A DNA stretch of 64,000 bases from a virus (taxonomy: Duplodnaviria; Caudoviricetes), in IMG/VR virus record IMGVR_UViG_3300020148_000032; one strand, 5' to 3'. The position numbers and the translations under genes were made by a program. Each line of letters begins with the position of its first letter. Position 1 is the first letter of the stretch. The notes under the pieces were generated by a model that was not told the DNA's origin, did no database searches, and saw only the letters and a list, made by a program, of their open reading frames with translations. Below are positions 1 to 53,296 of this stretch, piece by piece.

Positions 1-22
1 CTTCATATTAAACTAAAGGGAA

Positions 23-134
23 AAAGAACTCGATATGCCCCCAATGATTATGCAAACCATTACACTTAAGACTGCTTAAACAATCTTCAGGAATCGAACC
101 TGTCCTCATTGTCTAGAGACAAACCTCGTTCTTT
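23..134 (-). ncRNA. Permuted tRNA-mimic RNA 1 (YrlA/Y-RNA-like topology)
   Basis: Minus strand: CAATGA-GGA-[CAGG TTCGATT CCTG]-[AAGATTGT TAAA GCAGTCTT capped acceptor]-AA-[GTGT AATGGTTT GCAT D-arm]-AA-TCATTG; basal stems TGTCTC/GGGGCA and AAAGAAC/GTTCTTT. Confidence 0.75.
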
Positions 135-179
135 AGATTACCGTATACCGAGTTTTAAGCCTTCGGCAACATTTATCCG

Positions 180-254
180 TACCTGGGATGGGATTCGAAC
201 CCACACTGTATAGGACCTAAACCTATTGCCTCCTGCCAATTGGGCTACCCAGGC
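180..254 (-). tRNA. tRNA-Leu(TAG), short variable arm
   Basis: Cloverleaf; ATAGG TTTAGGT CCTAT. Confidence 0.9.
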
Positions 255-278
255 ATTTACTCTCGAAAGAGTAATAAG

Positions 279-418
279 TTACTATCACGATAAACGCCAC
301 GCTATATTCAACACGTAATAACCATCTCGTTCTTATGGAATTACAAATTTAATATAGTTCTCCGCATTCTCTATTACTAGCATAATGACTACTTTAAAAG
401 TCATTATCGTGACAATAA
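279..418 (-). ncRNA. Candidate structured ncRNA
   Basis: 15-bp terminal stem TTATTGTCACGATAA/TTATCGTGATAGTAA (G-U pairs only on minus strand) with internal helices. Confidence 0.45.
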
Positions 419-419
419 G

Positions 420-492
420 TGCCCTATCAGGGATTCGAACCCCGGCCTCGACCGTTAAGAGCGGCCTGCTCTAACCACTGAGCTAATAAGGC
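420..492 (-). tRNA. tRNA-Lys(CTT)
   Basis: Cloverleaf; loop CTCTTAA. Confidence 0.92.
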
Positions 493-575
493 ATGATTAT
501 CTTACATTGTTTCACTATTTAATTTGTCACAAGTATTACTTGTAACCCATAACAAATGACTTGTCAAATAAAACT

Positions 576-707
576 TTAGTTTTCTTCAAGTTTTTCAAGA
601 AACATATCAACAGAAACACTAGAATGCTCTGCAATTGCGTCCATCAATGCTTCAACTTGTTCAAGAGTCGCATCTGTTACAAGTAATTTCAAATTCCACG
701 CAGCCAT
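576..707 (-). CDS. Small acidic hypothetical protein (43 aa, MAAWNLKLL...)
   Basis: GAGGA RBS 7 nt before ATG at 707. Confidence 0.55.
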   Translation of the reverse strand: MAAWNLKLLVTDATLEQVEALMDAIAEHSSVSVDMFLEKLEEN

Positions 708-826
708 TTTGTTATCCTCACATTTCAAGATAGAATTTAAATCCAAGTCGGATATCAGCCTTATTCTTGTCAATAAAATAATTAATGACATGATTAATAC
801 TAAGTATGAGATTCCTCTCTATTATG

Positions 827-913
827 CGGAAGTGACAGGATTTGAACCTGCGGTAGAGTTTCCCCTACACTCGCTTTCCAGGCGAGCACCTTAAGCCACT
901 CAGTCACACTTCC
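827..913 (-). tRNA. tRNA-Ser(GGA)
   Basis: Long variable arm; loop CTGGAAA. Confidence 0.93.
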
Positions 914-917
914 ATAA

Positions 918-1005
918 TACCCGCAGAAGGATTCGACCTTCACTCATTCGCAATGATGAGCATCGCCGATTAAAGCAGGGTGTTTACCCATTCCACCATG
1001 CGGAT
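918..1005 (-). tRNA. Atypical long-arm tRNA-like gene, best-fit anticodon TTA (or pseudo-Leu)
   Basis: ATCCGCA/TGCGGGT acceptor, Leu-like D-arm, CCCTG CTTTAAT CGGCG, 6-nt T-loop. Confidence 0.5.
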
Positions 1006-1038
1006 ACATATTTATACTACCATATCTCATCAGTATAG

Positions 1039-2448
1039 TCAATTAAGATATTTCTTTTTTTTTATGAAATTATCAAGAATTTCAAGGGCTTCTTTCTTAG
1101 TTTTAAAATTACCCCTATATTGCATTTCTCTAAATTGAGAAATAATTTCTCCAACCCAAGGCCCTGGTTTCTTTGAAGAACACTCAAGAATATCTTTACC
1201 CATTACAAAATCAGGTTCATATGAAGTATATATACCTTCAAGGGCAGCCTTTTGAGAAACTTCTATAATTTCTTTATCATCAATAACCTTACCGTAAGAA
1301 TACAAACGTTCGAAAGTGAACCCTCTTGAACGAAGTTCAAATGCTAATTTCTTACGAAGATAAGTAGTTGACGCATCAGAAGACTTGAACTTGGCAAGAT
1401 CTTCAGCAATATCTTGCTTATCTCTCCCGATAAGAGAGATTGAATAAAAATCTTTTCGATCCTTTTGATTCATATTTCTAGCAATAAGAGCAGAACCAAT
1501 AATATCCTTATCCTTTTTTAAATGAGTAATTTCATTAATTCTTTTTTGAACCATTTCTGAAGATAAAGATTCTTTAAGTCCAGGGCTGATATCATCCCAA
1601 CCTGATTCTTGAAGAGCAATAACTCCATTAAGAGGTTTAGTGCTCTTTGTGAAGAATTTTTCCCATTCGCCTTGGACCCTTTCAGTTGAAAGATGTTCAT
1701 ACTCTGAACGTATAGATTGAGCGAGCTCCCTTGTATCAGGAGCCCAACGAAGGTTAAAGCGTGCAGCAAATTGGAAGCCTCTAAGAACTCTTAAAGGATC
1801 TTCAGAAAATTTACCACTTACATGACGGAGGACACGTCTATTAAGGTCACTAAGACCTCTAGACGGATCTATAATCATGTGATTTACATGGTCATACATC
1901 ATTGCATTAAGAGTAAAGTCTCTTCTTTCAGCAGCTTCAAGAAGTGTCATTTCAGTATCCATTACTACTTCGAAAGATCTGTGCCCAGCACCAACACGGT
2001 TTTCTTTACGAGGTACACTTACGTCAAGGTCGGTAACCCCTCTTCCGGAGACTTTAAGTACTCCAAATTCTTTACCCACTTCGTCAACAATGTAACCTTT
2101 ATTTTTTAAAAATTGAGCAAGGGAATCAATAGTTGTTCCGTGGACTTCAATGTCAATGTCTTTATTTGAAGAACCTGTAATGGAATCACGAACAGCACCA
2201 CCGACAATAAGAGGGGTTCCCTCTTCTTGAATTTCAGTAATAATATTATCTATTGTTTCTGGAAGTTTCATGATAAACGGTCTAACATTTTCTTTCCCAT
2301 ATTCGTTCGCTCTTTCTTGATAAAGAGATGGGTTATTAATCATGTCTTTTTGTTCTGGAGTGAATTCAAAATCTTCAAAAGGGCATGCTCTCTTTCGTGC
2401 GTTACAAAGAGAAAATGAGCCTTTAGAGTTAAGGTGATATCGTGTCAT
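1039..2448 (-). CDS. cca: CCA-adding tRNA nucleotidyltransferase with short N-terminal His/Cys extension
   Basis: VGGAVRD, DIDIEV, RRDFTLNAM, EDPLRVLR class II nucleotidyltransferase motifs. Confidence 0.9.
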   Translation of the reverse strand: MTRYHLNSKGSFSLCNARKRACPFEDFEFTPEQKDMINNPSLYQERANEYGKENVRPFIMKLPETIDNIITEIQEEGTPLIVGGAVRDSITGSSNKDIDIEVHGTTIDSLAQFLKNKGYIVDEVGKEFGVLKVSGRGVTDLDVSVPRKENRVGAGHRSFEVVMDTEMTLLEAAERRDFTLNAMMYDHVNHMIIDPSRGLSDLNRRVLRHVSGKFSEDPLRVLRGFQFAARFNLRWAPDTRELAQSIRSEYEHLSTERVQGEWEKFFTKSTKPLNGVIALQESGWDDISPGLKESLSSEMVQKRINEITHLKKDKDIIGSALIARNMNQKDRKDFYSISLIGRDKQDIAEDLAKFKSSDASTTYLRKKLAFELRSRGFTFERLYSYGKVIDDKEIIEVSQKAALEGIYTSYEPDFVMGKDILECSSKKPGPWVGEIISQFREMQYRGNFKTKKEALEILDNFIKKKKYLN

Positions 2449-2508
2449 AAGTAGTGCACTCCTTCAAAAGTTTTTCTAAAGAGAAAACGAGTACACTTTC
2501 TTCTTTAA

Positions 2509-2586
2509 TGGTAGCCCTGACTGGATTCGAACCAGTGATCTCTTCTTTATGAGGGAAGCGCTTTCGACCGACTAAGCTACAGGGCC
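2509..2586 (-). tRNA. tRNA-Met/Ile2(CAT), CCA encoded
   Basis: Loop CTCATAA; non-initiator acceptor. Confidence 0.88.
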
Positions 2587-2602
2587 ATTATTTTGTGATG
2601 TG

Positions 2603-2685
2603 TGCCTAAAGCGGGACTCGAACCCGCACGCCCTTTCGGGCACGGCGTTCTTAGCGCCGCACGTCTACCATTCCATCATTCAGGC
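2603..2685 (-). tRNA. tRNA-Leu(AAG)
   Basis: CGGCG CTAAGAA CGCCG; long variable arm; A73. Confidence 0.9.
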
Positions 2686-2785
2686 ATTGAGGATAAGGTG
2701 AGTTTTAATTCATATTCTCCTCAAAATATGAAAACCACAATGTTAGTGGCTCTCGATGTTGACATTTTATTATCCAGAAATATTG

Positions 2786-2998
2786 TCAACATGTAAAAAT
2801 TATCGGCGGATATTTTCCACCAATGTGAACTTGATAAGCAGTTCTATACAAAGAATCATCCGAACCAGAAGAGTTCAAATAATCTTTCATTCTTTTCACT
2901 ATCTTTTTTAAATTAAAGTGAGACGGTTGTGAAGAACTACCCATATAACCCAATGCTACTATTTTAGCTTGAGAATTCATCATTTCATAAGCATTCAT
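2786..2998 (-). CDS. Hypothetical protein
   Basis: 70-aa ORF, AAAGGAG RBS. Confidence 0.6.
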   Translation of the reverse strand: MNAYEMMNSQAKIVALGYMGSSSQPSHFNLKKIVKRMKDYLNSSGSDDSLYRTAYQVHIGGKYPPIIFTC

Positions 2999-3021
2999 TA
3001 TAATTCTCCTTTTAATAAATG

Positions 3022-3092
3022 CTGCCCGACTAGGATTCGAACCTAGACCTGTTGAGTCAGAGTCAAATATGCTGCCATTACACTATCGGGCA
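3022..3092 (-). tRNA. tRNA-Gln(CTG)
   Basis: Loop CTCTGAC. Confidence 0.9.
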
Positions 3093-3101
3093 ATAGTTGG
3101 T

Positions 3102-3341
3102 TTACTTCTGATGCAAACCAAGAACAGTGATATCTCCAGTGAGAGTATCAAGAGTACAATCAACCGCGATTTCACAAAAAGCAAAACGAGCGGTTTCGGA
3201 CTTGTTAAGAAGTTCCACAATCTCTTCCTCAGAAATTGGCGCTCCGCCTTCAGCTTGATTCATAGAATAATGAATCATTTCGGCGCGCTCCTTATTAGAT
3301 CCAGCGGAGCCGCTAAGATAATAAACAAATGGAAGCTTCAT
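3102..3341 (-). CDS. Hypothetical protein, paralog of 3380-3607
   Basis: Shared C-terminal C-x-(I/L)-D-x-x-TGDI-x-(I/V)-LG motif. Confidence 0.7.
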   Translation of the reverse strand: MKLPFVYYLSGSAGSNKERAEMIHYSMNQAEGGAPISEEEIVELLNKSETARFAFCEIAVDCTLDTLTGDITVLGLHQK

Positions 3342-3379
3342 GGGAAACCCTTTCAACAAGAATAATGAACTATTCTATT

Positions 3380-3607
3380 CTAATTGGAAAACCCTAAAAT
3401 GTCAATGTCTCCAGTATCAAGATCAATAGAGCATTTTAATTCAACTTCTTGAAAAGAGTAATAACTTGACTTTTGTCGAATAAGTTCATAAAGTTCATCC
3501 TCAGTAAGATGATAATTAGGGTCTTTCGCAAGTTGCTCGTGAAGAATTTCAGAAAGTTCCCTGTGCGTATAATCATCATGAATAGTATGAGTAAACTTTA
3601 TTTTCAT
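3380..3607 (-). CDS. Hypothetical protein, paralog of 3102-3341
   Basis: Shared C-terminal motif; GAAGG RBS. Confidence 0.7.
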   Translation of the reverse strand: MKIKFTHTIHDDYTHRELSEILHEQLAKDPNYHLTEDELYELIRQKSSYYSFQEVELKCSIDLDTGDIDILGFSN

Positions 3608-3635
3608 TGGGACCTTCTATTCTGTTAAAATATAG

Positions 3636-3709
3636 TGTGACTAGACGGACTTGAACCCTCAACCACTGGTACCACAAACCAGCGCTCTACCAATTGAGCT
3701 ATAGCCACC
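3636..3709 (-). tRNA. tRNA-His(GTG)
   Basis: Loop TTGTGGT; G-1 encoded, A73. Confidence 0.88.
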
Positions 3710-3807
3710 ATCGTTACTTATTTCTTGCAACAATCTCCACCGCAAGAACAAGTGCAATCTTCTTTATCTTTATACATATTTCACCACCTTCATATGAATA
3801 ATATGAG

Positions 3808-3880
3808 AGCGAGTGACCAGATTCGAACCGGCGTTAACAGTTTGGAAGACTGTAGTACTAGGCCTCTGTACGACACTCGC
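3808..3880 (-). tRNA. tRNA-Gly(TCC) copy 1
   Basis: Loop CTTCCAA; 1 nt different from 9889-9961. Confidence 0.9.
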
Positions 3881-3919
3881 AATATGTCAATATTCTATCA
3901 AGAATATCAACAAGTTTTA

Positions 3920-4093
3920 TTAATCATCAATAACAACAGAAATCATCGCCTTAGCAGAAGGATTATCGGAATGCTTTTCGAGAACCTCGACCTTATGTTC
4001 GGTAGCCTCAGCAAAAGTATCGTCATAAGAATAGACGACCCAATAGTTTCCATCAAAGAAAAGAACCATAAACTTACCAAAATGATTAAACAT
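3920..4093 (-). CDS. Small hypothetical protein (57 aa, MFNHFGKFMV...)
   Basis: AAGGA RBS; TTGACA-17-TATTAT promoter at 4159-4131. Confidence 0.6.
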   Translation of the reverse strand: MFNHFGKFMVLFFDGNYWVVYSYDDTFAEATEHKVEVLEKHSDNPSAKAMISVVIDD

Positions 4094-4335
4094 GTGAATC
4101 CTTATTTTAATAGTAGTGATGAGTTATTTCATAATAACACTATATGATAAGAATGTCAATATACTCAAAGCGCGCAGGAAGTTGAACAATTAGCGCTTCA
4201 TGTTCAACCTTTCCCGCGCCTTTAAACGGAATTTTTGTTATTCTGTAGATTAATTCTAACTACAACCCACTTTATGATGAGGGCTCGCCGTGATATCCAT
4301 ACACGGTCTCGAAGGGATACATACATATCCCGAAG

Positions 4336-4406
4336 CTGGAGTACTAGGATTCGAACCTAGACTAACTGATCCAAAGTCAGGGGTGCTGCCATTACACTAT
4401 ACTCCA
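4336..4406 (-). tRNA. tRNA-Gln(TTG)
   Basis: Loop CTTTGGA. Confidence 0.9.
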
Positions 4407-4445
4407 AAGTTTAATGCATAATTATTAATTATATCAAGAAAAAAG

Positions 4446-4520
4446 TCTAGATAGAAGGATTCGAACCTTCGACTCCTCGGATCCAAACCGAGTACCCTGG
4501 CCAAACTGAGCTATATCTAG
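4446..4520 (-). tRNA. tRNA-Pro(TGG)
   Basis: Loop TTTGGAT. Confidence 0.9.
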
Positions 4521-4547
4521 ATAGCAATCACAAGGATTGCTTTTTTA

Positions 4548-4697
4548 TTAAGAATGAGAAGCACGTCTAAAACGAACTTCATTCATAGTTTTGTACGTTT
4601 CAAAATCCTTAGTTTGTAACAAAGTCTCCGAAAGAATTTCATCAAAACTTCCCATCATTTCAAGTTCAACTTCAACTTTAGAATTTATATGATACAT
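4548..4697 (-). CDS. Small hypothetical protein (49 aa, MYHINSKVEV...)
   Basis: AAGGAG RBS. Confidence 0.5.
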   Translation of the reverse strand: MYHINSKVEVELEMMGSFDEILSETLLQTKDFETYKTMNEVRFRRASHS

Positions 4698-4739
4698 AAG
4701 GTTCTCCTTTTTAAAAAATTTTCTATATAAAGTTTATAG

Positions 4740-4812
4740 TGAATCTAGAGGGACTCGAACCCGCAACCTCTTCCGAGTCAAGGAAGCGCTCTACCAATTG
4801 AGCTATAGATTC
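4740..4812 (-). tRNA. tRNA-Val(GAC)
   Basis: Loop TTGACTC. Confidence 0.9.
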
Positions 4813-5014
4813 ATAAGCTGCTGTCTAAAAAATTATAAGACTATAGCAGAAGAGATAACTAGGCAGGACATACCAGGCTGGGGGAGCAGATGTGAGAGTG
4901 ATAGCATCATGGTAGTGTCCTTTCTAAGTTGAGAAACTGCAGTATAGCAGTAGTTTATGATTGAAGTGTTTCAATATGCAGAAAAAGTTTTAATCTTTTT
5001 AAGCTGCAGTGTAG

Positions 5015-5098
5015 TGTCCAGGATGGGAGTCGAACCCACATGACCTTTCGGTCACAGCGACCTCAACGCTGCGCGTATACCAATTCCGCCACCTGGAC
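5015..5098 (-). tRNA. tRNA-Leu(GAG)
   Basis: Long arm; loop TTGAGGT. Confidence 0.92.
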
Positions 5099-5120
5099 AT
5101 TGAAGTAAAAATACTTATCG

Positions 5121-5202
5121 CGGAGGGCACGGGATTCGAACCCGCGACCGTGTTACCGGCGACCGATTTCAAGTCGGTTTGCTAACCATTCGCCTACCCT
5201 CC
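5121..5202 (-). tRNA. tRNA-Ser(TGA)
   Basis: Long arm; loop CTTGAAA. Confidence 0.9.
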
Positions 5203-5259
5203 AAGGGTTAAAGATTAAAGAAGTTTCCCGAGCTCTAGGTTCTCTTTAATCAATCACTT

Positions 5260-5322
5260 TTAAAATATAACCCAAACTTTACGACACTGCCGTAGAGGGG
5301 AATCGAACCCCTCATATTTTAA
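5260..5322 (-). ncRNA. Permuted tRNA-mimic RNA 2
   Basis: TTAAAATAT-[GAGGGG TTCGATT CCCCTC]-[TACGGC AGT GTCGTA]-AAGTTTGGGTT-ATATTTTAA. Confidence 0.7.
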
Positions 5323-5369
5323 CGCTTAACTCTGCGCATACACATTCACGTTATAGTGTAAGAAGTAAG

Positions 5370-5442
5370 CGCCCGTAGAGAGATTCGAACTCCCGACACC
5401 TTGGTCCGAAGCCAAGTGCTCTATCCACTGAGCTATACAGGC
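5370..5442 (-). tRNA. tRNA-Arg(TCG)
   Basis: Loop CTTCGGA. Confidence 0.9.
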
Positions 5443-5644
5443 AAAAACGAGACTAGTTTAACCAGAACACACTCGCAATATCATAATCCCTGATTCCTTA
5501 AAAAAGAAACCCGAAACTTTTCACACCAGATATTTGGCGGCTTTATTTACTCCAAGTCGAGAGTCCCTATTTTATACTCAGGAAATAAGGATCCAAGGAC
5601 AATGGTTAGTTGTCATGCTCTATGGAAGCTACAATGAAAGAAAA

Positions 5645-6703
5645 TTAGAATTTCAAGGCAAGATTAGAGCAATTATTAGGAATAAACTCCTTTTTATCTT
5701 CTAAATCTTGAATAGAAACACCAACATGAGAAAAACGAACACTCTCACCAACAATAATAAAAAGATTCAAGTCAGAATTCTTATCAAAAGAATCCCTCAT
5801 TTTATGAAGCATATCATCTGTAACCCAACCTTTATATTCTATATAAAGATCATAATCTTCAATGTAAAAATCAGGATAAAATTTCCTATTCTTTCCTTCT
5901 AAAGTCACATAAGGGAAACCCTTAGAATTACGTGTCCAATTAATAGGTAAAGAATCAAGAAAATTAGCAACCCTAATTTCCTCACGATTTAAATACATTA
6001 TCTCACCACTTTTTACAGTGTGATGAAAGTTTTTACTGCGACCTCCGCCAGGACGTAGACCACCATTATTAGAAAGATCGCGTCCAGCAAAAGAACACTT
6101 ATTAGAGCAAAATTTTCGAGTAGTAGTATTAGCGAAAAATTCTTTCTTACACATTGAGCAGAATATATAACGGGGACCCACTTTTTGTCTTTTTATTTTA
6201 CTTAAAGATCTACTCTTTCTCTCAGAATTTTTGCATTCAAGATTACAATATTTTGACTTACTACTATTAGATTTAAAGTCTTTTTTGCAAACAAAACATG
6301 TATGTGAATAAACTCTTAAAGAAACTATTTTAGTGCTACATTCTATAGAGCAAAATTTTAATCCTTTTCTGTTACCAGAGCGGCCCGCATATTTTTCAAA
6401 AACTTTGTTACAAGATTGATTTTGACAAATAAGTATCTTCCAGCCTTTAGCTCTACGTTTAGCGCAAACTTCAGAAGATCCATGAGCAATTAAACTTTTA
6501 TTAGTTTTAAATTCTGTTTTACAAGAAGAACAGAAAGTAGAATTAGGGTCGATTTTACGAGTTTTATAAGAAATATTATGAACCATTTTAAGATGAGTTC
6601 TCATTCCCATAAAAGTGAGAAATTTTCTTTCACAAGTTTTAAAATCACAAGGAATAATAAGCTCAGAAGGATCGGCATCTGTGGATCTCTTTGTTTTAGT
6701 CAT
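5645..6703 (-). CDS. Multi-zinc-finger PD-(D/E)xK endonuclease (free-standing homing-endonuclease-like)
   Basis: C2H2 and repeated CxxC...FCSxxC units; C-terminal YPDF...IEYKG. Confidence 0.75.
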   Translation of the reverse strand: MTKTKRSTDADPSELIIPCDFKTCERKFLTFMGMRTHLKMVHNISYKTRKIDPNSTFCSSCKTEFKTNKSLIAHGSSEVCAKRRAKGWKILICQNQSCNKVFEKYAGRSGNRKGLKFCSIECSTKIVSLRVYSHTCFVCKKDFKSNSSKSKYCNLECKNSERKSRSLSKIKRQKVGPRYIFCSMCKKEFFANTTTRKFCSNKCSFAGRDLSNNGGLRPGGGRSKNFHHTVKSGEIMYLNREEIRVANFLDSLPINWTRNSKGFPYVTLEGKNRKFYPDFYIEDYDLYIEYKGWVTDDMLHKMRDSFDKNSDLNLFIIVGESVRFSHVGVSIQDLEDKKEFIPNNCSNLALKF

Positions 6704-6729
6704 ATGATTATTTTATCAAAAATTAATCG

Positions 6730-6800
6730 CAGGAGTACTAGGAATCGAACCCAGATCATCGAGGTTGGAGCTCGAGATTTTACCATTAAACTACACTCCT
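6730..6800 (-). tRNA. tRNA-Trp(CCA)
   Basis: Loop CTCCAAC. Confidence 0.92.
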
Positions 6801-6825
6801 ATAGTGTAAAAATGAAATAAAGAGA

Positions 6826-6938
6826 ACTCTTCCAACATATTCCAAAATATTGCATCATTTTCCAGAATGATAAAGAGTGCAACCGAAAGGTTAAAGATAA
6901 GGATCACCCTTCGTAATCTAATTCGGACTGGAATCCGA
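6826..6938 (-). ncRNA. Candidate kissing-loop ncRNA
   Basis: Hairpin loops at 6860-6865 and 6928-6933 are exact complements (TTCCAG/CTGGAA). Confidence 0.5.
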
Positions 6939-6946
6939 CCCTATCG

Positions 6947-7017
6947 AGCTAATGACGAGAATCGAACTCGCGTTATCTCGTTGGCAACGAGAAGTTTTAC
7001 CATTAAACTACATTAGC
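6947..7017 (-). tRNA. tRNA-Gly(GCC)
   Basis: Loop TTGCCAA. Confidence 0.92.
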
Positions 7018-7292
7018 ATTTGGCCTTTTCTTCCGTGAGGGTAGTACCATACCCCTTCGCTTCATTCCTGTCGGCGGCCGTTTCCTTTATGCCTCTAGTG
7101 TTTAACGGGTTAATCATCGTGGTCTCCCAACGGACCTACCACAATATTTTATTATATCAGAAAATTTACGAACTTTCATATTTGGTATTCGTAATGAGAG
7201 CCGATAACTCCTCAACCTCATAAGGGTACATCAACCTGGGGCTCGAAGAAATCTTTTTCAATTTCGGCAGGCATCACTTGCATTCCTTATAG

Positions 7293-7378
7293 TAACGGAG
7301 GCGGGATTTGAACCACTTATATAATTGCGACCTCTAGGTTATGAGCCTAGCGAGCACTCCGAGCTGCTCCACTCCGTG
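7293..7378 (-). tRNA. Initiator-type tRNA-fMet(CAT) with ~11-nt insertion in T-stem
   Basis: C1:T72 mismatch, loop CTCATAA; GC-AATTATATAAGT-GG TTCAAAT CCCGC. Confidence 0.75.
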
Positions 7379-7391
7379 TCGTTATCATTCG

Positions 7392-7467
7392 TAGCGGTGA
7401 CAGGATTCGCACCTGCGATCTCTAGGATATGAGCCTAGCGGGGACAACTGAACTCCCCTACACCGCG
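7392..7467 (-). tRNA. Initiator-type tRNA-fMet(CAT)
   Basis: CGCGGTG acceptor with C1:T72; T-loop TGCGAAT. Confidence 0.85.
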
Positions 7468-7519
7468 CTTAAGGGATGAAGTATTCTGCGTAATATTGTT
7501 ACGAGATTTTTCATCCTAG

Positions 7520-7592
7520 AGCCACCTATCGGGTTCGAACCGATGACCTTCTCATTACTAGTGAGATGCTCTACCAACTGAGCTAAGGGGGC
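7520..7592 (-). tRNA. tRNA-Thr(AGT)
   Basis: TCTCA CTAGTAA TGAGA. Confidence 0.9.
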
Positions 7593-7717
7593 AGTGAGGA
7601 ATGATGAATTCCTCTAAGTTAATACATAGTAAGACCACCTGACTTAATCATGTTATCATCATAATCAAGTACTGGAGAATCCTCGCGGAGTTTCCCTTCT
7701 TATTTTTGTTAACTTTG

Positions 7718-7791
7718 AGCCCCTTGTCAGGTTCGAACTGACGACCTTTCGCTTACAAGGCGAACGCTCTGACCAACTGAGCTAAGGGGGC
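7718..7791 (-). tRNA. tRNA-Thr(TGT)
   Basis: Loop CTTGTAA. Confidence 0.92.
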
Positions 7792-7834
7792 ATGGTGATA
7801 GACTGAATTCAATATATTCATCTTCAATCTATCG

Positions 7835-7906
7835 TGGAGAATAGGGGACTCGAACCCCTAACCTTGACCTTGCAAAGGTCCTGCGCTACCATTGCGCCAA
7901 TTCCCC
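7835..7906 (-). tRNA. tRNA-Ala(TGC)
   Basis: G3:U70; loop TTTGCAA. Confidence 0.92.
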
Positions 7907-7961
7907 ATCGTAACTTTTTGAAAGTTACGTTAGTAACACTATTTTAATATCAGTATTTGAT

Positions 7962-8036
7962 TGGTACCCCCGGGCAGAGTTGAACTGCCTTCATCATGTT
8001 ATAAGCATGAGGTCCTAACCCGTAGACGACAGGGGC
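7962..8036 (-). tRNA. tRNA-Ile(TAT), CCA encoded
   Basis: TCATG CTTATAA CATGA. Confidence 0.88.
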
Positions 8037-8098
8037 ATAATTTTTTAATTATGGTATTACTATATCAATTTTTTTGAAAAAGTCAAATTGTTTAATAA

Positions 8099-8174
8099 TG
8101 GTAGGCCCCCTGGGATTCGAACCCAGAACCTGCGGATTAAAAGTCCGTAGCTCTGCCGTTGAGCTAGAGGCCCA
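8099..8174 (-). tRNA. tRNA-Lys(TTT), CCA encoded
   Basis: Loop CTTTTAA. Confidence 0.9.
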
Positions 8175-8197
8175 TCTTTATATCATTTTCTAACGCG

Positions 8198-8271
8198 TGG
8201 ACCCGAGGAGAATCGAACTCCTCGCACTAACCTTGCAAAGGTTGGTCGCCCCCCTTGGAACATGCGAGCCC
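8198..8271 (-). tRNA. tRNA-Ala(TGC), divergent D-arm
   Basis: G3:U70; loop TTTGCAA. Confidence 0.8.
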
Positions 8272-8275
8272 ATTT

Positions 8276-8393
8276 GAAAGTTTCATTTATAGGAATGATA
8301 CTTACAAACACCCAGGCTCCTCCACCTGGATTCGAACCAGGAACCTTAGAGTTAACAGCTCTCTGCTCTGCCGTTGAGCTATGGAGGAATAGG
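8276..8393. repeat. 118-bp direct repeat (tRNA-Asn plus 3' trailer), second copy 13851-13968
   Basis: One mismatch between copies. Confidence 0.9.
8317..8388 (-). tRNA. tRNA-Asn(GTT) copy 1
   Basis: Loop CTGTTAA. Confidence 0.92.
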
Positions 8394-8640
8394 TTGTCAC
8401 TATATTTCCATTAAGGAATTATAGAAATATTTTCCACATAACCACATTTCAGTTTGATCATCATATATTTCTTCAGCGAACAGATCCACAATAAAGGAGA
8501 CATAGTCCCCTTTTATATTATATATGTAATCATATGAAGTGTATTGTGATGGGTTGTTAATTCACCATTCTTTATGTAATTTTTTCTTTTATTTTCATTA
8601 TATTCTCCTTTATATATTTTTATATGGAGATATTCATGAG

Positions 8641-8715
8641 TGCGCGTTGAGGGACTCGAACCCCCGACCGCCTCGGTGTAAACGAGGAACTCTAACCAAC
8701 TGAGTTTAAACGCGC
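8641..8715 (-). tRNA. tRNA-Val(TAC)
   Basis: Loop TTTACAC. Confidence 0.9.
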
Positions 8716-8774
8716 ATGATGTTTTGTCGAGCAAGTACACTATACTATATCAGTATAGTGATTGTCAAATTGAC

Positions 8775-8849
8775 GCTCCAGGTATAGGAATCGAACCTAT
8801 GCCGCCCTGATTCAAAGTCAGGGTTCCCATGCCAGCAGAGAACCTGGAA
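8775..8849 (-). tRNA. tRNA-Gln(TTG), divergent
   Basis: CCTGA CTTTGAA TCAGG. Confidence 0.8.
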
Positions 8850-9042
8850 AACCGACTAGAAGGGACCAACCTTTTCACGGTTACTTATTTTCGTTTAAGT
8901 AGTACCTAACCATCTCTTGGTTAGTCTGTTTTTCGAACGGTGTAGTTTTAGTATACACGAGATACTGTCGTTTCTTCGGCGATCACGACAAGCGCCCCAC
9001 AAGCCCAGTGGGTGGGGAGACGAGCGGTTAATTCATCTCGTG

Positions 9043-9115
9043 CGCGCCCGGAGGGATTCGAACCCCCAACCTTCTGATCCGTAGTCAGATGCTCTATCCG
9101 TTGAGCCACGAGCGC
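9043..9115 (-). tRNA. tRNA-Arg(ACG)
   Basis: Loop CTACGGA. Confidence 0.93.
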
Positions 9116-9264
9116 ATGGTCGCCTTTTAAGATCTTGTTCCCACATACTTGGAGCACCCCTTAAAAGACTTCATGATAAGTCACAAATATCACGCATTCG
9201 GTTAGTTTCCCTTATTCTGGTCAGGAATCTAACACCTTACCAGGGGCGTTCAATGGAGAGTTAA

Positions 9265-9434
9265 TCTTCACTAAACGTTTTAATATGACGCGACTCATAT
9301 TAAGAATTAGGTGGCAATCGCGTTCACCAACTTAGAATCATTGCCTTTTGAATAGACACCCACCGTGGGCGCGAATGCGCTATATTTTAAAAAGATAATC
9401 CCTACATTGTACAGAGTAGGGTAAATAGTGAAGA
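9265..9434 (-). ncRNA. Candidate multibranch pseudoknotted ncRNA
   Basis: 9-bp closing stem TCTTCACTA/TAGTGAAGA, several hairpins, complementary loops at 9289-9294 and 9317-9322. Confidence 0.45.
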
Positions 9435-9517
9435 GATGTTCGGGAGAATAGCCAATCGCCGTGCTTTCGAGAGCATTTTTCCTTCATTATTTAACTAGGG
9501 TATCACTATCTATAGAG

Positions 9518-9601
9518 TGGGCCCGGCCAGATTCGAACTGGCAACGTTTCTCCGTCACTGTTTTACAGACAGCTTGCTTCAGCCAATTTGCATACGGACC
9601 C
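9518..9601 (-). tRNA. tRNA-Tyr(GTA)
   Basis: Long arm; loop CTGTAAA. Confidence 0.9.
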
Positions 9602-9784
9602 AAAGTGTGTTGATTTTTGAAAGATAGGTTCAACACACAAAACCTTCTCAAACATGAAAGTTTGAATTATCACTAGTTTAAAGACACTTTGGCTGGAACC
9701 TTTCACCCTTGTAAGAGTTTCCAGTAACTCATACCACTCCTTAGAGGTGGGAAGACGAAGTGTGCCTCTACTCCGAAAGATCAT

Positions 9785-9881
9785 GATAACCCGACTCCTG
9801 TCGTTCTCTCATACAACCGTGTATTATGAGGAGTTGAACCTCAAGAGTTTACCTACACCTTTTGATAGGTGCGAGGTTACC
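9785..9881 (-). ncRNA. Permuted tRNA-mimic RNA 3
   Basis: GGTAACCT..hairpin GCACCT/AGGTGT..ACTCT-[TGAGG TTCAACT CCTCA]-[TAATACA CGGT TGTATGA]-GAGAACGACA-GGAGT-C-GGGTTATC. Confidence 0.6.
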
Positions 9882-9888
9882 ATTAAAG

Positions 9889-9961
9889 AGCGAGTGACCG
9901 GATTCGAACCGGCGTTAACAGTTTGGAAGACTGTAGTACTAGGCCTCTGTACGACACTCGC
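9889..9961 (-). tRNA. tRNA-Gly(TCC) copy 2
   Basis: Loop CTTCCAA. Confidence 0.92.
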
Positions 9962-10057
9962 AAAGCGATATAGCGGTCTCACGCATTGACGCCAACATGT
10001 AGCGTCTCAACCCTTTGTACTGGGTATATCATCGCGGGCTTGGTTTTCACCTGAGCG

Positions 10058-10139
10058 CTCCCCCACCTGGACTCGAACCAGGAGGAATAAATTCACGGAT
10101 TAACAGTCCGTCCCGCTGCCAATTACGGTTTATGAGGGA
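10058..10139 (-). tRNA. tRNA-Asn(GTT) with enlarged variable region
   Basis: ACGGA CTGTTAA TCCGT then GAATTTATTCCT before T-arm. Confidence 0.8.
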
Positions 10140-10254
10140 ATAGGAAAGAGATTTTTATGTCAGGCTCTCTTTCATTGTACCCTATCTGGGAACCCAGAGT
10201 ATTTGCATGTTGACATTAATGCAATATGTTCAACTTAACATCGAACATGCAAAG

Positions 10255-10328
10255 CGACCGCGACGGGGCTCGAACCCGCGACCTCTACCGTGACAGGGTA
10301 GCGCTCTGACCAACTGAGCTACGCGGCC
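10255..10328 (-). tRNA. tRNA-Asp(GTC)
   Basis: Loop CTGTCAC. Confidence 0.93.
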
Positions 10329-10363
10329 ATAATAGTTTAACGTCAGTTTCGGACGAAAATGAT

Positions 10364-10528
10364 TTAGGTATTAATAACTGCACGACGCTTCGGGAAGAGT
10401 CGAGACTTAATCTTGGTCATTTCACGCTTGGTAGCGCGATAATTACGCTCGTTTTCTCGAATGAAAGCAAGCTCCTCGACAATTCGCTTGCGACGATTCT
10501 CAGCCTTGACCTGTGCATTAGTAGCCAT
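10364..10528 (-). CDS. Small basic protein (54 aa, MATNAQVKAENRRKRIVEEL...)
   Basis: TAAGGA RBS; Arg/Lys-rich; below ORF-track cutoff. Confidence 0.7.
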   Translation of the reverse strand: MATNAQVKAENRRKRIVEELAFIRENERNYRATKREMTKIKSRLFPKRRAVINT

Positions 10529-10592
10529 TGTGTTATCCTTACTTCGTGCTTTTTTATTACTTACATAAGATCCACATTTTCATGCGGAACAG

Positions 10593-10666
10593 CGACCGCA
10601 ACGGGACTCGAACCCGCGACCTCCACCTTGACAGGGTGGCGCTCTAACCGACTGAGCTATGCAGCC
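10593..10666 (-). tRNA. tRNA-Asp(GTC)
   Basis: Loop CTGTCAA. Confidence 0.92.
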
Positions 10667-10874
10667 ATATATTTCGACCTACGGGTTCTTCCGTCAGTGG
10701 TATTATCATTCCGGATTTCAAATACCTAACCTCTAGTAAGTACGTAGATTCTATACACTTCCAATGTTATAAATTTTTGTGTTGGCTAACGAAAACCTAT
10801 GACATTGTTTGATAAAGCAGTTTGCCATGCCAAACTACATCGAAATAATGTTCTTTCATATTTTTATGAAATAG

Positions 10875-10946
10875 TAAGTATTATAGGATTCGAACCTATA
10901 TCTCTCAGCGGGTAAGCCGAGTGCTCTTCCATTAAGCTAAACACTC
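10875..10946 (-). tRNA. tRNA with 8-nt anticodon loop (CTTACCCG), identity undetermined
   Basis: Intact acceptor, D and T arms; CTCGG CTTACCCG CTGAG. Confidence 0.7.
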
Positions 10947-10947
10947 C

Positions 10948-11040
10948 ATCTAATCACGAGCAGATCACACTCTGCCAAACGCGGCAACGTTTGCCCAAGT
11001 GGTGCATCTCGAATTGATAACAAGAATTGCCGTCCTTGTT
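10948..11040 (-). ncRNA. Candidate kissing-loop ncRNA
   Basis: Hairpin loops at 10982-10987 (CGGCAA) and 11027-11032 (TTGCCG) are exact complements. Confidence 0.5.
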
Positions 11041-11048
11041 ACTCCTTG

Positions 11049-11122
11049 TACCCCCTCAGGGATTCGAACCCTGGACCCACTGATTAAGAGTCAGTTGCTC
11101 TAACCTACTGAGCTAAGGAGGC
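11049..11122 (-). tRNA. tRNA-Lys(CTT)
   Basis: Loop CTCTTAA. Confidence 0.93.
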
Positions 11123-11211
11123 ATAAATGTTTATGCTATTGTATCAGTTTTTACATAAACTTTATTCTTTCGAATGTCTGGGGTTATATTTTTATCTCTG
11201 ACCCAGTAAGG

Positions 11212-11322
11212 GGCGGTTACGTTACATTAGCGTTATCTCCAGATAATCATCGTTGAAGTTGCATCATTGACTTAAAGGAATTGAACCTTTACTAACCTTG
11301 TCACTGGACAAGGTAACCTACC
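11212..11322 (-). ncRNA. Permuted tRNA-mimic RNA 4
   Basis: GGTTAC..hairpin CTTGTC/GACAAG..TTAGT-[AAAGG TTCAATT CCTTT]-irregular capped stem-ATCTGGAGATAAC-GCTAA..GTAACC. Confidence 0.5.
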
Positions 11323-11323
11323 G

Positions 11324-11396
11324 TGCCACCGGTCGGAATCGAACCGACGACCTTTCGTTCTTCAGACGAACGCTCTACCAATTGAGCTACAGTGGC
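11324..11396 (-). tRNA. tRNA-Phe(GAA)
   Basis: Loop CTGAAGA. Confidence 0.92.
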
Positions 11397-11440
11397 ATTC
11401 ATATCACTTTTGATTTATCAAGTTTCATTCAATAAGTAAT

Positions 11441-11469
11441 ATTATACATGAAGTGATTCCTCATGTCAA
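11441..11469 (-). promoter_or_regulatory. Consensus primary-sigma promoter
   Basis: TTGACA-17-TATAAT. Confidence 0.85.
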
Positions 11470-11497
11470 ATCAAAACCGAATAAAGTTTTGAAAGAG

Positions 11498-11571
11498 TGC
11501 GGGTACCTGGACTTGAACCAGGGACCTTCGACTTATCAGGTCGATGCTCTAACCAACTGAGCTACACCCGC
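11498..11571 (-). tRNA. tRNA-Ile(GAT)
   Basis: Loop CTGATAA. Confidence 0.93.
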
Positions 11572-11682
11572 ATAAAATGAAGAATACCTCTTAATAAGGA
11601 AGTTCCTGGCATCGGCGAGAAAATCTCATGGACGTGATAATCCATTATTCTTCATTTTTCTTACTGTATTAAACAGTAATCG

Positions 11683-11754
11683 TACCCCGACGGAGAATCG
11701 AACTCCGGCGACGAGGTCGAAAGTCTGGCGTACTAACCTCTATACTACAGGGGC
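11683..11754 (-). tRNA. tRNA-Glu(TTC) with disrupted anticodon stem
   Basis: Near copy of 12165-12236; CCAGA/CCTCG has two mismatches. Confidence 0.65.
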
Positions 11755-11755
11755 A

Positions 11756-11832
11756 TGGGGTGTCTGACGGGATTCGAACCCGCGGATGACCGAGTCACAG
11801 TCGGCTGCGTTAACCTTTTCGCCACAGACACC
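11756..11832 (-). tRNA. tRNA-His(GTG), G-1:C73, CCA encoded
   Basis: Loop CTGTGAC. Confidence 0.93.
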
Positions 11833-12078
11833 ATCGGGGTATAAAGTGGCCACAATATACCCCTATAACATAAAATAATATAATAATTAAAATAATATAA
11901 TAATAAATAAATAATATTGTAAAAATGCGAAGTTTTTGTTCACTTGAAATAAAGTCTTTATTATGATGCTTTATACCACGGGTGTTTATATCCCGGATTA
12001 CATATAAAGATCATTTTATACATTCCAAATTTAGAGAATGCATAAATCTTCACTTGCCGACTTTCACCGACAATTAAA

Positions 12079-12146
12079 ATAATCAACTAAAGAATCGAAC
12101 TTTAGAACCCTATTTTTCAGTAAATGGGCTTCCTAATTTTGATTAT
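12079..12146 (-). ncRNA. D-armless tRNA-like element
   Basis: ATAATCAA/TTGATTAT stem, unpaired AATTAGGA, irregular hairpin, CTAAAG TTCGATT CTTTAG. Confidence 0.5.
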
Positions 12147-12164
12147 CACCTGCTTAACGCATTG

Positions 12165-12236
12165 TACCCCGACGGAGAATCGAACTCCGGCTACCAGATT
12201 GAAAGTCTAGCGTACTAACCTCTATACTACCGGGGC
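12165..12236 (-). tRNA. tRNA-Glu(TTC)
   Basis: Loop CTTTCAA. Confidence 0.92.
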
Positions 12237-12283
12237 AAGGTGTCTAGAATTATGGGGACCGCCCCGACTAGACTCAATGTATA

Positions 12284-12997
12284 TTACATTCCAATGAAAT
12301 CATTGGAAATTTTTATCCATTTCTTGGGTTCACGATAAAATTCTCTCCATAGTATTCTTAATACTACCCATCCTTCATCAGAGGCAAGGGAATCCTTTGT
12401 TTTATCAGAAATAATTTGACGTTGATAACGAATGTGTTGATCGCCATCGATTTCAATTACTTTCTTTTTGTGAAGCCAAGCAAAATCGAAAGAATACTTT
12501 TCAAAAGGGTATTCTCTCACAAAATTTTTATCATCAAACTCGTTTTCAATAACTTGAGTGAAGAATTTTTCAGGATAAGATTCATTGATGCTTGGATTTA
12601 ACCACCGCATGGCTTGATTCTTTTTATGTTTATCCTTCATTATTGAAGAAAGTTTCTCTTTCGTCTTTTTTGAATGTTTTCGTCCAAGATTTGGAGAATT
12701 AATTCTTTCAGGGTTTGAATAACAATAGTTTTTATGTAATCCAAACCCAGATTTGTTTGTATTAAAAATTTTCATGCACCATTCGCACGTAAATTTTCTA
12801 CGTTTAATTGAATTCTTTGAAATGAAATCACTTTTAGTGTGAGCCATTTCTTTGTTATGTTGTTGCATCTTTCTCCTTGTAGAGAAAGTTAAACAACATA
12901 ATGAGCAATTCCATTGTGGAGAACCGTTGCATTTTTTAATGTGTAGAGAAAGGGCATGTTTTGTGAAGTTTTTAACTTTACATTGTGAACATTCCAT
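12284..12997 (-). CDS. Zinc-finger/NUMOD3 + DUF559(Vsr-like) endonuclease, homing-endonuclease-like
   Basis: C2H2 fingers, GRKHSKKTKEKLS, DFAW..IEIDGDQH..D; start moved to 12997 to avoid tRNA-Ser. Confidence 0.8.
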   Translation of the reverse strand: MECSQCKVKNFTKHALSLHIKKCNGSPQWNCSLCCLTFSTRRKMQQHNKEMAHTKSDFISKNSIKRRKFTCEWCMKIFNTNKSGFGLHKNYCYSNPERINSPNLGRKHSKKTKEKLSSIMKDKHKKNQAMRWLNPSINESYPEKFFTQVIENEFDDKNFVREYPFEKYSFDFAWLHKKKVIEIDGDQHIRYQRQIISDKTKDSLASDEGWVVLRILWREFYREPKKWIKISNDFIGM

Positions 12998-13015
12998 TTT
13001 TATCAACACCTTAAG

Positions 13016-13104
13016 CGGAAGTGACAGGATTCGAACCTGCGGGCGCCTTGTTAGACGCCACACGATTAGCAGTCGCGCGCCTTAATCCACTCAGCCACAC
13101 TTCC
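13016..13104 (-). tRNA. tRNA-Ser(GCT)
   Basis: Long arm; loop CTGCTAA. Confidence 0.93.
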
Positions 13105-13128
13105 ATTGATTGTTTTTCTTACAATTCG

Positions 13129-13209
13129 TTGGAAATAGAGGACTCGAACCTCTTAAGCATGAAGCGACCCCTTTACAGGGGGTTTCCTTTTCCTATTGGA
13201 TAATTTCCT
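13129..13209 (-). tRNA. Divergent tRNA-Tyr(GTA), 1:72 mismatch
   Basis: ACCCC CTGTAAA GGGGT; A1:A72. Confidence 0.7.
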
Positions 13210-13211
13210 AA

Positions 13212-13302
13212 AAATACTTGATGAATCCCATGTGAGTGTCATTCACCGCCGGAGTCGAACCGGCGCATCACATTCAGTAGACTAATCTGAATGGTAGTAT
13301 TT
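13212..13302 (-). ncRNA. Permuted tRNA-mimic RNA 5
   Basis: AAATACT-AC-[CATTCAG..CTGAATG]-TGATG-[CGCCGG TTCGACT CCGGCG]-[GTGAAT GAC ACTCAC]-ATGGGATT-CATCA-AGTATTT. Confidence 0.75.
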
Positions 13303-13308
13303 CTATTG

Positions 13309-13381
13309 TACCCCGAACGGGATTCGAACCCGTGTTACCGGCGTGAGAGGCCAGCGTCCTAGGCCACTAAACGACCGGGGC
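13309..13381 (-). tRNA. tRNA-Glu(CTC)
   Basis: Loop CTCTCAC. Confidence 0.93.
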
Positions 13382-13407
13382 ATTGATTTTAAATTTATTA
13401 AAAAGAT

Positions 13408-13531
13408 CGATGTTTGGTAGGACTCGAACCTCCTGCATCCGCGCTCCTGAACGCGGCCGTCTACCTCATGGTTTATATTCCGTAAACTTTGCCTAACTTC
13501 ATGCGGCGGTCATTTCAGCCGGTCAAATATC
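13408..13531 (-). ncRNA. tRNA-like RNA with 8-bp acceptor, ~50-nt D-arm insertion and 8-nt anticodon loop
   Basis: GATATTTG/CAAACATC; CCGCG TTCAGGAG CGCGG; AGG TTCGAGT CCT. Confidence 0.5.
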
Positions 13532-13597
13532 CCGAAAGACATGAGAGGTTAGGTCTTCTGCGAGTGCTATAGCCTTGCGTATCGAATGCTCGCATTG

Positions 13598-13672
13598 TCG
13601 GGGTAACAGGATTCGAACCTGCGACTTCTCGCTCCCAAAGCGAGCGCTCTGACCAAACTGAGCTATACCCCG
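13598..13672 (-). tRNA. tRNA-Pro(TGG)
   Basis: Loop TTTGGGA. Confidence 0.93.
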
Positions 13673-13686
13673 TTAATTATCGTGCG

Positions 13687-13759
13687 TGCCTTCGGTGAGA
13701 TTCGAACTCACACTGTATCGATTTTGAGTCGACTTCCTCTACCGTTGGGATACGAAGGC
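13687..13759 (-). tRNA. tRNA-Leu(CAA), short variable arm
   Basis: Loop CTCAAAA; actinobacterial short-arm Leu type. Confidence 0.9.
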
Positions 13760-13765
13760 AAAGGG

Positions 13766-13846
13766 TGGTAGATGAGGGATTCGAACCCCCGAAGCTTTCG
13801 CAACTGATTTACAGTCAGCTCCCTTTGGCCGCTCAGGAAATCTACC
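13766..13846 (-). tRNA. tRNA-Tyr(GTA)
   Basis: Loop CTGTAAA. Confidence 0.93.
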
Positions 13847-13891
13847 ATTCGAAAGTTTCATTTATAGGAATGATACTTACAAACACCTAGG

Positions 13892-13963
13892 CTCCTCCAC
13901 CTGGATTCGAACCAGGAACCTTAGAGTTAACAGCTCTCTGCTCTGCCGTTGAGCTATGGAGGA
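13892..13963 (-). tRNA. tRNA-Asn(GTT) copy 2
   Basis: Identical to 8317-8388. Confidence 0.92.
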
Positions 13964-14039
13964 ATAGGAGGCCACCGAGAAGGAGTTTTCTACTGGAAGG
14001 CTTCAGTTGCTCTGAAAACATATTTCAAAATAACGAGAG

Positions 14040-14112
14040 CACCCGTAGAGGGATTCGAACCCCCGACACGCAGATTAGAAGCCTGCTGCTCTATCCACTG
14101 AGCTATACGGGC
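14040..14112 (-). tRNA. tRNA-Arg(TCT)
   Basis: Loop CTTCTAA. Confidence 0.93.
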
Positions 14113-14125
14113 AAGATGTGTTACG

Positions 14126-14200
14126 TCGGGGTAACAGGATTTGAACCTGTGACTCCTCGGTCCCAAACCGAGTGCTCTGGCCAAACTGAGCTACACCCCG
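14126..14200 (-). tRNA. tRNA-Pro(TGG)
   Basis: Loop TTTGGGA. Confidence 0.93.
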
Positions 14201-14224
14201 TTAAGATGTTTATATTATTGGGAG

Positions 14225-14297
14225 TGCCTCCGGTGAGACTCGAACTCACACTGAATCGATTTTAAGTCGACTTCCTCTGCCATTGGGATACGAAGGC
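14225..14297 (-). tRNA. tRNA-Leu(TAA), short variable arm
   Basis: Loop CTTAAAA; paralog of Leu(CAA). Confidence 0.9.
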
Positions 14298-53145: not shown

Positions 53146-53296
53146 TTTAATACCTTTCACTAGTTCTTTTTAGTTGGGGGAGCCAGTAAATAAATAAATA
53201 TTCACGTTTCTATTATACTACTTTTTAAAAGAAAGTCAAACTTCTTCTCTTACTCTTTAAGCGACCTCAAATGAGGCCGCTTAAAGAGCGTTTTAA

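Follow-up and report, generated by a model that had tools for sequence, protein, structure and literature searches.

The minus strand of the window (the whole 64,000-nt stretch of DNA analyzed in this study) carries an element at 23..134 in which the parts of a tRNA cloverleaf appear in permuted order. The question raised by this locus is whether the element is a tRNA gene that would be rearranged into a decoding molecule, or the gene of a non-coding RNA that mimics a tRNA. A previous sequence-only reading had put forward both a Y-RNA-like molecule and a true permuted tRNA gene. Y RNAs that mimic tRNAs are known, and the copy described here is located in the middle of one of the largest tRNA arrays of any mobile element, near a CCA-adding enzyme and with neither a recognizable Ro-binding motif nor a Ro gene within reach.

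By appearance, the window is part of a giant phage-like element, and its genes are all on the minus strand. The tRNA genes number 49 by ARAGORN and 47 by Rfam matches, spanning 179-14297, and all 49-51 of them are on the minus strand. Upstream of the element, and on its strand, lie a tRNA-Leu(UAG) gene (179..254, minus strand) at a distance of 44 nt and, inside the array, a gene for a CCA-adding enzyme (1039..2448, minus strand; PF01743 E = 1.7e-20, phrog_2244 E = 1.4e-54) at a distance of 905 nt. The array includes homing-endonuclease-like genes, and the tRNA-Gln genes of the window are one with the CUG anticodon and two with UUG. A 6.4-kb metagenome contig with the same DNA (L012) extends 1.7 kb past the window start, where the array continues with Ser(CGA), Arg(CCU), Thr(CGU), and Cys(GCA). 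A SpoU/TrmH methylase is also encoded in the window, and of the two RNA ligases that the sequence-only reading had counted, one was located there (52132-53160, PF09414 match). No ORF of at least 50 aa overlaps 23-134. A megablast search against a cultured-phage collection returned short tRNA matches only, and an exact 36-mer had no match in IMG/VR.

Besides the regular tRNA genes, the window contains a tRNA at 10874-10946 (minus strand; 57.4 bits in Rfam) with a four-base anticodon (tacc), to which ARAGORN assigns no amino acid and which may be of the frameshift-suppressor type or otherwise unusual. Two tRNA-like genes at 918-1005 and 7293-7378 (both minus strand) were identified by Rfam only, at 30-32 bits, and missed by ARAGORN; each has a long insertion in the anticodon/variable region. 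Beyond the window start, the array ends at a gene for a 205-aa protein (L012 5500-6117, plus strand) with a DUF5915 match (E = 6e-7), and near-identical DNA repeats of about 120 bases occur in the second half of this gene.

The element measures 112 nt as folded, with its ends defined by the fold only, and RNA position n corresponds to window base 135-n. The minimum free energy of 134..23 was -35.7 kcal/mol, compared with -22.3 +/- 3.0 kcal/mol in 200 dinucleotide shuffles (z = -4.46), and none of the 200 shuffles folded as well. The fold is a four-way junction of a stalk with an anticodon-like stem, a T arm, a capped hairpin, and a D arm, and every helix had a pairing probability of 0.6-1.0 with 40-nt flanks included. 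All parts are given here on the minus strand. The 5' strand of the basal stalk (116..134) pairs with the 3' strand (23..41) in 7+3+6 bp interrupted by 2x2 and 1x1 internal loops (probability 0.75-1.0), and the 3' strand is followed by a U-rich run. A 4-nt bulge, UAGA (112..115), confined to the 5' side, separates the stalk from the anticodon-stem-like helix, in which the 5' strand (106..111, equivalent to tRNA positions 39-44) pairs with the 3' strand (42..47, equivalent to positions 27-32) at a probability of 0.6-0.9. The equivalent of the variable region, GGA (103..105), is unpaired in the fold. It is followed by the T arm (88..102), with a 4-bp stem and the loop UUCGAUU (probability 0.96-0.97), the capped acceptor-like hairpin (68..87), with 8 bp and the loop UUAA (probability 0.88-1.0), and the D arm (50..65), GUGU / AAUGGUUU / GCAU, with a 4-bp stem and an 8-nt loop containing GG (probability 0.9-0.98). 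The D arm is flanked by AA linkers at 66-67 and 48-49.

Most structural claims of the sequence-only reading held on folding. The permuted cloverleaf with an intact D arm on a long stem was recovered, and the proposed resemblance of this arm to tRNA-Gln is borne out by 15 of 18 positions identical to tRNA-Gln(CUG) at 3021-3092. The CAATGA/TCATTG stem is present with 6 bp and does continue as a helix, although the continuation comprises 16 bp across 22 positions rather than about 20 bp. In total, approximately 28 bp of the stalk are helical, and both RNA ends are held in it. The cap had been read as TAAA; the actual loop is UUAA, and the acceptor-like stem below it consists of 7 bp plus a closing U-G pair. 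The alternative TAATCT/AGATTG fold with an open acceptor, which had been named as the competing structure, is available in the sequence at a cost of 11.3 kcal/mol and has a probability of about zero.

A strict descriptor of the arrangement (the T loop, a T stem of at least 4 bp, a capped stem of at least 8 bp, a 4-bp D stem with GG, and a closing stem of at least 6 bp) matched once in the window and in none of 100 dinucleotide shuffles, with both strands searched. Strain SNPs from compost and bovine metagenome contigs were observed at 122 (A>T, in two runs) and 126 (T>G, in one), both of which are unpaired stalk positions, a placement that fits weakly with the fold being under selection. No RNA data set was among the public runs listed for the region. 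A G-U pair at the equivalent of 3:70 was also considered and dropped as a probable coincidence, as it appears in one numbering register only and is absent from the relative in L018 described below.

Other modules with a T arm that are not tRNAs were observed on the minus strand of the window. In the module at 5260-5322, a 9-bp closing stem encloses a T arm and a hairpin, each of 6 bp, together with an unpaired strand containing GGG, and the one at 13212-13302 has a 10-bp closing stem that encloses a 7-bp hairpin, a T arm, and a third hairpin. The modules at 9785-9881 and 11212-11322 match the permuted layout poorly in their minimum free energy folds.

The order of parts in the element is that of the YrlA RNAs, in which a closing helix is followed by the V region, the T arm, a stem-loop that replaces the acceptor, the D arm, and the closing helix again (Chen et al. 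2014, PMC4201824). YrlA RNAs have been reported from 254 bacteria and 22 bacteriophages, in the vicinity of Ro60 genes (PMC4201824). The kind of molecule is therefore already known, as tRNA mimics of this layout have been published for phages, and the remark of the sequence-only reading that it knew of no permuted tRNA genes in phages does not apply to them. The agreement with YrlA (Chen et al. 2014; Wang et al. 2018, 10.1101/312249; RF02553) extends to the 2-nt linker, and the structure line of RF02553 has the same topology as the element. Because of this shared order and topology, "Y-RNA-like" is the better of the two descriptions. The residues of the T and D loops able to form a tRNA elbow are also present, in that the T loop UUCGAUU and the GG of the D loop were found both in the element and in its relative in L018. 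Additionally, the element sits among the tRNA genes of a phage-like genome, comparable to the situation in Streptomyces phage Gilson. Among the differences from YrlA, an A occupies the equivalent of tRNA position 8, where U is expected, and the stalk is nearly continuous, with about 28 bp and a 4-nt bulge, whereas the handle of phage RNAs of the YrlA type is largely unpaired.

Database models and sequence motifs did not identify the element. A search of window 1-175 and 1-1100 with RF02553 gave no match even at E <= 10 (gathering threshold 69 bits). As a control, the element next to gp220, the TROVE gene of mycobacteriophage Bxz1, was scored and reached only 32.5 bits, below half of the gathering score, so the threshold is strict for phage members. 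For annotation, this is a caution that tRNA finders and Rfam thresholds miss such modules. No other Rfam family matched the element or the adjoining RNA at gathering and E-value thresholds. The GNCGAAN0-1G motif, a putative Ro60 contact, is absent near the 5' end of the element, where the closest stretch is GAACGAGG, and nothing similar was found in the L018 relative. The handles UACUUC and ACAGCAA of other phage groups are missing. No TROVE domain (PF05731) was found in the window among the ORFs of at least 380 aa and the other ORFs scanned, which covered all but five short minus-strand ORFs of 104-227 aa, nor within the 1.7 kb beyond the window start in L012 or the 21-kb L018 locus. A same-strand Ro60/TROVE gene within about 4 kb, which is a criterion for YrlA RNAs, is hence missing from the window and the adjoining 1.7 kb. 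The element is accordingly filed here as working like YrlA and not as a proven member. What is new about it is a stalk of about 28 bp that is nearly continuous and bears no known handle, together with the absence of any Ro gene within reach and the location in giant elements.

A covariance model, R1, was built from the single sequence of the element, which it scored at 138.5 bits, as expected by construction. Over approximately 1 Mb of loci around relatives of the CCA-adding enzyme, one full-length match was found (31.2 bits, E about 2e-4), at 14005-14115 of the locus L018. This locus belongs to a 697-kb metagenome contig (Ga0308157_10000025), the CCA-adding enzyme of which is 41% identical to that of the window. 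The match lies inside an array of 29 tRNAs, 12 nt upstream of a tRNA-Gln, with the CCA-adding enzyme gene 2.5 kb upstream. The T loop UUCGAUU is identical in the two elements, and a GUGU..UGG D motif is common to both. The stems of the relative differ in sequence: its capped stem has 5-6 bp and its anticodon-like stem 8 bp, a 6-nt bulge is found on the 5' side only and in the same place as in the window element, and its stalk runs for 21 bp without interruption. By these sizes, the junction lies about 28-29 positions away from the RNA ends in both elements. The long-stalk members therefore number two, and covariation in the stalk amounts to one comparison between them. No R1 match was obtained in five related or comparison records or in Microbacterium phage Cece. 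Streptomyces phage Gilson likewise gave none, and no cultured phage carrying the element was identified.

When IMG/VR was searched with a pattern made of the T loop and then the D motif, more than 115 loci were obtained, which included many tRNA dimers and dozens of permuted modules. The permuted modules in phage tRNA arrays group by their handles, UACUUC, ACAGCAA, and GUUCCGCAAAA, and their cores scored 15-33 bits with R1. A TROVE gene was found on the same strand 0.3-1.5 kb from the elements of L111, L139, L183, and L199, and 10.6 kb from that of L200, and these TROVE-linked elements are read as phage YrlA RNAs. The scores of the element's core against phage elements beside TROVE (Ro60) genes, together with the published YrlA order of parts, uphold the Y-RNA-like alternative of the sequence-only reading. 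Elements of the ACAGCAA type (L129, L146, L150, L195, L197, and L198) likewise combine a permuted T arm, capped stem, and D arm within phage arrays, whereas the window element and the L018 relative lack this handle and carry a long paired stalk instead.

In a joint alignment, 91.4% of the cells pair, whereas shuffles reach 62.5%. Covariation scores 0.409 in this alignment and at most 0.076 when the partners are slid. These figures are biased towards the structure, because the alignment was fitted to a model derived from the window element and includes one spurious plus-strand row. All 8 pairs of the capped hairpin covary across the phage relatives. A MAFFT alignment (A7) placed the variable capped and closing stems out of register, and another alignment (A6) contained spurious rows. 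An anchored pattern returned tRNA dimers or already known elements only in IMG/VR, and one tRNA dimer in species genomes.

Further modules were observed in L018. Near-duplicate orphan T-arm modules with an 11-bp closing stem occur at 4540-4670 and 12850-12980, many others were found in the same locus, and two tandem T-arm hairpins within one closing stem are located at 14205-14275, just after the tRNA-Gln.

The element probably encodes a stable non-coding RNA of the YrlA type, that is, a tRNA-mimicking Y RNA, a reading that takes in the following mechanism. The RNA would be co-transcribed with the tRNA array and released by the nucleases that process tRNAs. The T arm, the D arm, and the capped acceptor-like stem would together make up an elbow like that of a tRNA. 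In place of the anticodon arm there would be the helical stalk, about 28 bp long, with both ends locked in it and probably protected. The tRNA-like head may be handled by tRNA enzymes, which would include modification and, by analogy with YrlA, possibly cleavage by RNase P and CCA addition. For the YrlA of M. smegmatis, a 7-bp stem is the stated reason for its cutting by RNase P and receipt of CCA (PMC4201824), and the 7-bp stem with its closing U-G pair in the window element resembles this substrate feature. However, the capped stem of the L018 relative is shorter, so a role as a substrate for RNase P as well as for the CCA-adding enzyme would not be a conserved function. The stalk with its one-sided bulge may serve as the handle for a partner protein, which could be a Ro60/TROVE ortholog encoded elsewhere in the genome or another protein.

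The alternative that survives best is a tRNA mimic acting independently of Ro, and it is considered unlikely. RNase P, from the host or the element itself, would open the capped stem and the neighboring CCA-adding enzyme would tail it. The product would be a tRNA-like molecule in two pieces, or else it would act as a decoy or sponge that occupies host factors able to bind tRNA, such as defence nucleases that target tRNA. Consistent with this possibility, neither a Ro gene nor a Ro motif was found within the window plus 1.7 kb, the acceptor-like stem is comparable to that of M. smegmatis YrlA (PMC4201824), a CCA-adding enzyme gene lies upstream in both giant elements (by 905 nt in the window and 2.5 kb in L018), and an RNA ligase and a SpoU/TrmH methylase are encoded in the window. 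In contrast, the 5-6 bp of the capped stem in L018 indicate that an acceptor of the RNase P type is not conserved, the absence of Ro applies to the window plus 1.7 kb, which is a small part of the genome, and cleavage, tailing, and binding are all putative. A broader form of the idea appears quite doubtful, namely that giant phage-like elements carry a Ro-independent "long-stalk" class of tRNA mimic. In the window element, its own reduced set for tRNA processing, with the CCA-adding enzyme, would recognize the elbow and open and tail the cap, and the resulting two-piece tRNA-like RNA on a dsRNA stalk would protect or regulate the more than 50 tRNAs of the element, for example by acting as a decoy for host defences that target tRNA. 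Should the complete genome prove to encode no Ro ortholog, the element would be a clear example in which a scaffold of the YrlA type works with another partner, and that partner would best be sought at the long paired stalk.

A non-functional relic, in which a rearranged or duplicated fragment of tRNA-Gln folds by chance, is quite improbable. The D arm shares 15 of its 18 positions with the tRNA-Gln(CUG) counterpart and the L018 relative lies 12 nt upstream of a tRNA-Gln, both of which speak for such a fragment, and the homing-endonuclease-like genes in the array could drive rearrangements. Nevertheless, a chance rearrangement would not produce a capped stem of 8 bp combined with a closing helix of 6+16 bp (0 of 100 shuffles; z = -4.46), the architecture recurs in the distant L018 with different stem sequences, and the strain SNPs avoid paired positions.

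The element may also be no free RNA but a signal in the array transcript, acting as tRNA-like punctuation, an RNase III site, or a terminator that shapes the tRNA transcript, and this possibility is very unlikely. Such a role would be compatible with the long helices (21 bp uninterrupted in L018 and 16 bp over 22 positions in the window element), with the U-rich run after the window element, and with the further stem-closed T-arm modules scattered through both arrays. However, a terminator scan listed no site at the element on its strand, L018 has not retained the U run and has a tRNA beginning 12 nt on, and a plain processing hairpin would have no need of a conserved D arm or of a T loop.

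The second proposal of the sequence-only reading, a true circularly permuted tRNA gene that would be completed by end-joining and opening at the cap, is extremely improbable: with no anticodon loop, no bulge-helix-bulge, its ends in an arm of about 28 bp, and Gln isoacceptors already present (CUG and UUG), the element is not a permuted tRNA gene, and decoding is impossible. In Cyanidioschyzon merolae and some archaea, permuted tRNA genes have the T arm and the 3' strand of the acceptor ahead of the 5' strand of the acceptor and the D arm. The element likewise encodes its 3' half upstream of its 5' half, with a short intervening loop at the acceptor ends, and an RNA ligase gene is present in the window. 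Unlike those genes, it contains none of the residues of a 7-nt anticodon loop, as the 3' strand of the anticodon-like stem enters the helix without an unpaired base. In place of a bulge-helix-bulge, one strand has a single 4-nt bulge, with the next irregularity, a 1x1 loop, 6 bp away, and the mapped ends are locked in the long helix, such that joining them would yield an arm of about 28 bp. The linker AA also stands in place of the expected U8. Known permuted tRNAs are matured by a splicing endonuclease that is not known to be bacterial, which counts further against this proposal. When the halves were rearranged in silico and the anticodon loop of tRNA-Gln was lent to them, ARAGORN recognized a cloverleaf at the default setting for L018 and at a relaxed threshold only for the window element, a result that indicates tRNA ancestry or mimicry and not a gene. 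Two-piece tmRNA also has a permuted tRNA-like domain with a T arm, but the element has neither a tag reading frame nor an open acceptor end, and ARAGORN found no tmRNA in the window.

For the YrlA-type reading, cultured actinophages provide context for the partner protein. Microbacterium phage Cece, which has an 87.7% tRNA-Lys match to the window, and Streptomyces phage Gilson, which matches the RNA adjoining the element just past the window start, both encode TROVE proteins. As these phages are linked to the window by short matches, a Ro ortholog elsewhere in the genome of the element is quite possible. The TROVE gene of Gilson is annotated as "RNA-binding protein". Two unannotated YrlA-like modules were identified inside the tRNA array of this phage (L214 385-438 and 1582-1635; about 66884-66937 and 68081-68134 in NC_048742), the nearer approximately 0.7 kb and the farther approximately 1.9 kb upstream of the TROVE gene, and they offer a cultured system for testing the YrlA-type class of RNA.

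The RNA-like element of about 103 nt that adjoins the window (L012 4777-4879, plus strand) lies 55-157 nt beyond the window start, which is downstream of the tRNA mimic on the minus strand. It has a perfect 11-bp closing stem followed immediately by GGUCGAA, a sequence similar to the Ro-contact motifs GGUCCGA and GNCGAA. Matches to it at 76-81% identity over 85-95 nt lie in unannotated gaps of about 24 Streptomyces phages, such as Gilson 117338-117430, and the closing stem shows a compensatory change. In Gilson, the TROVE gene is 48 kb from this RNA.
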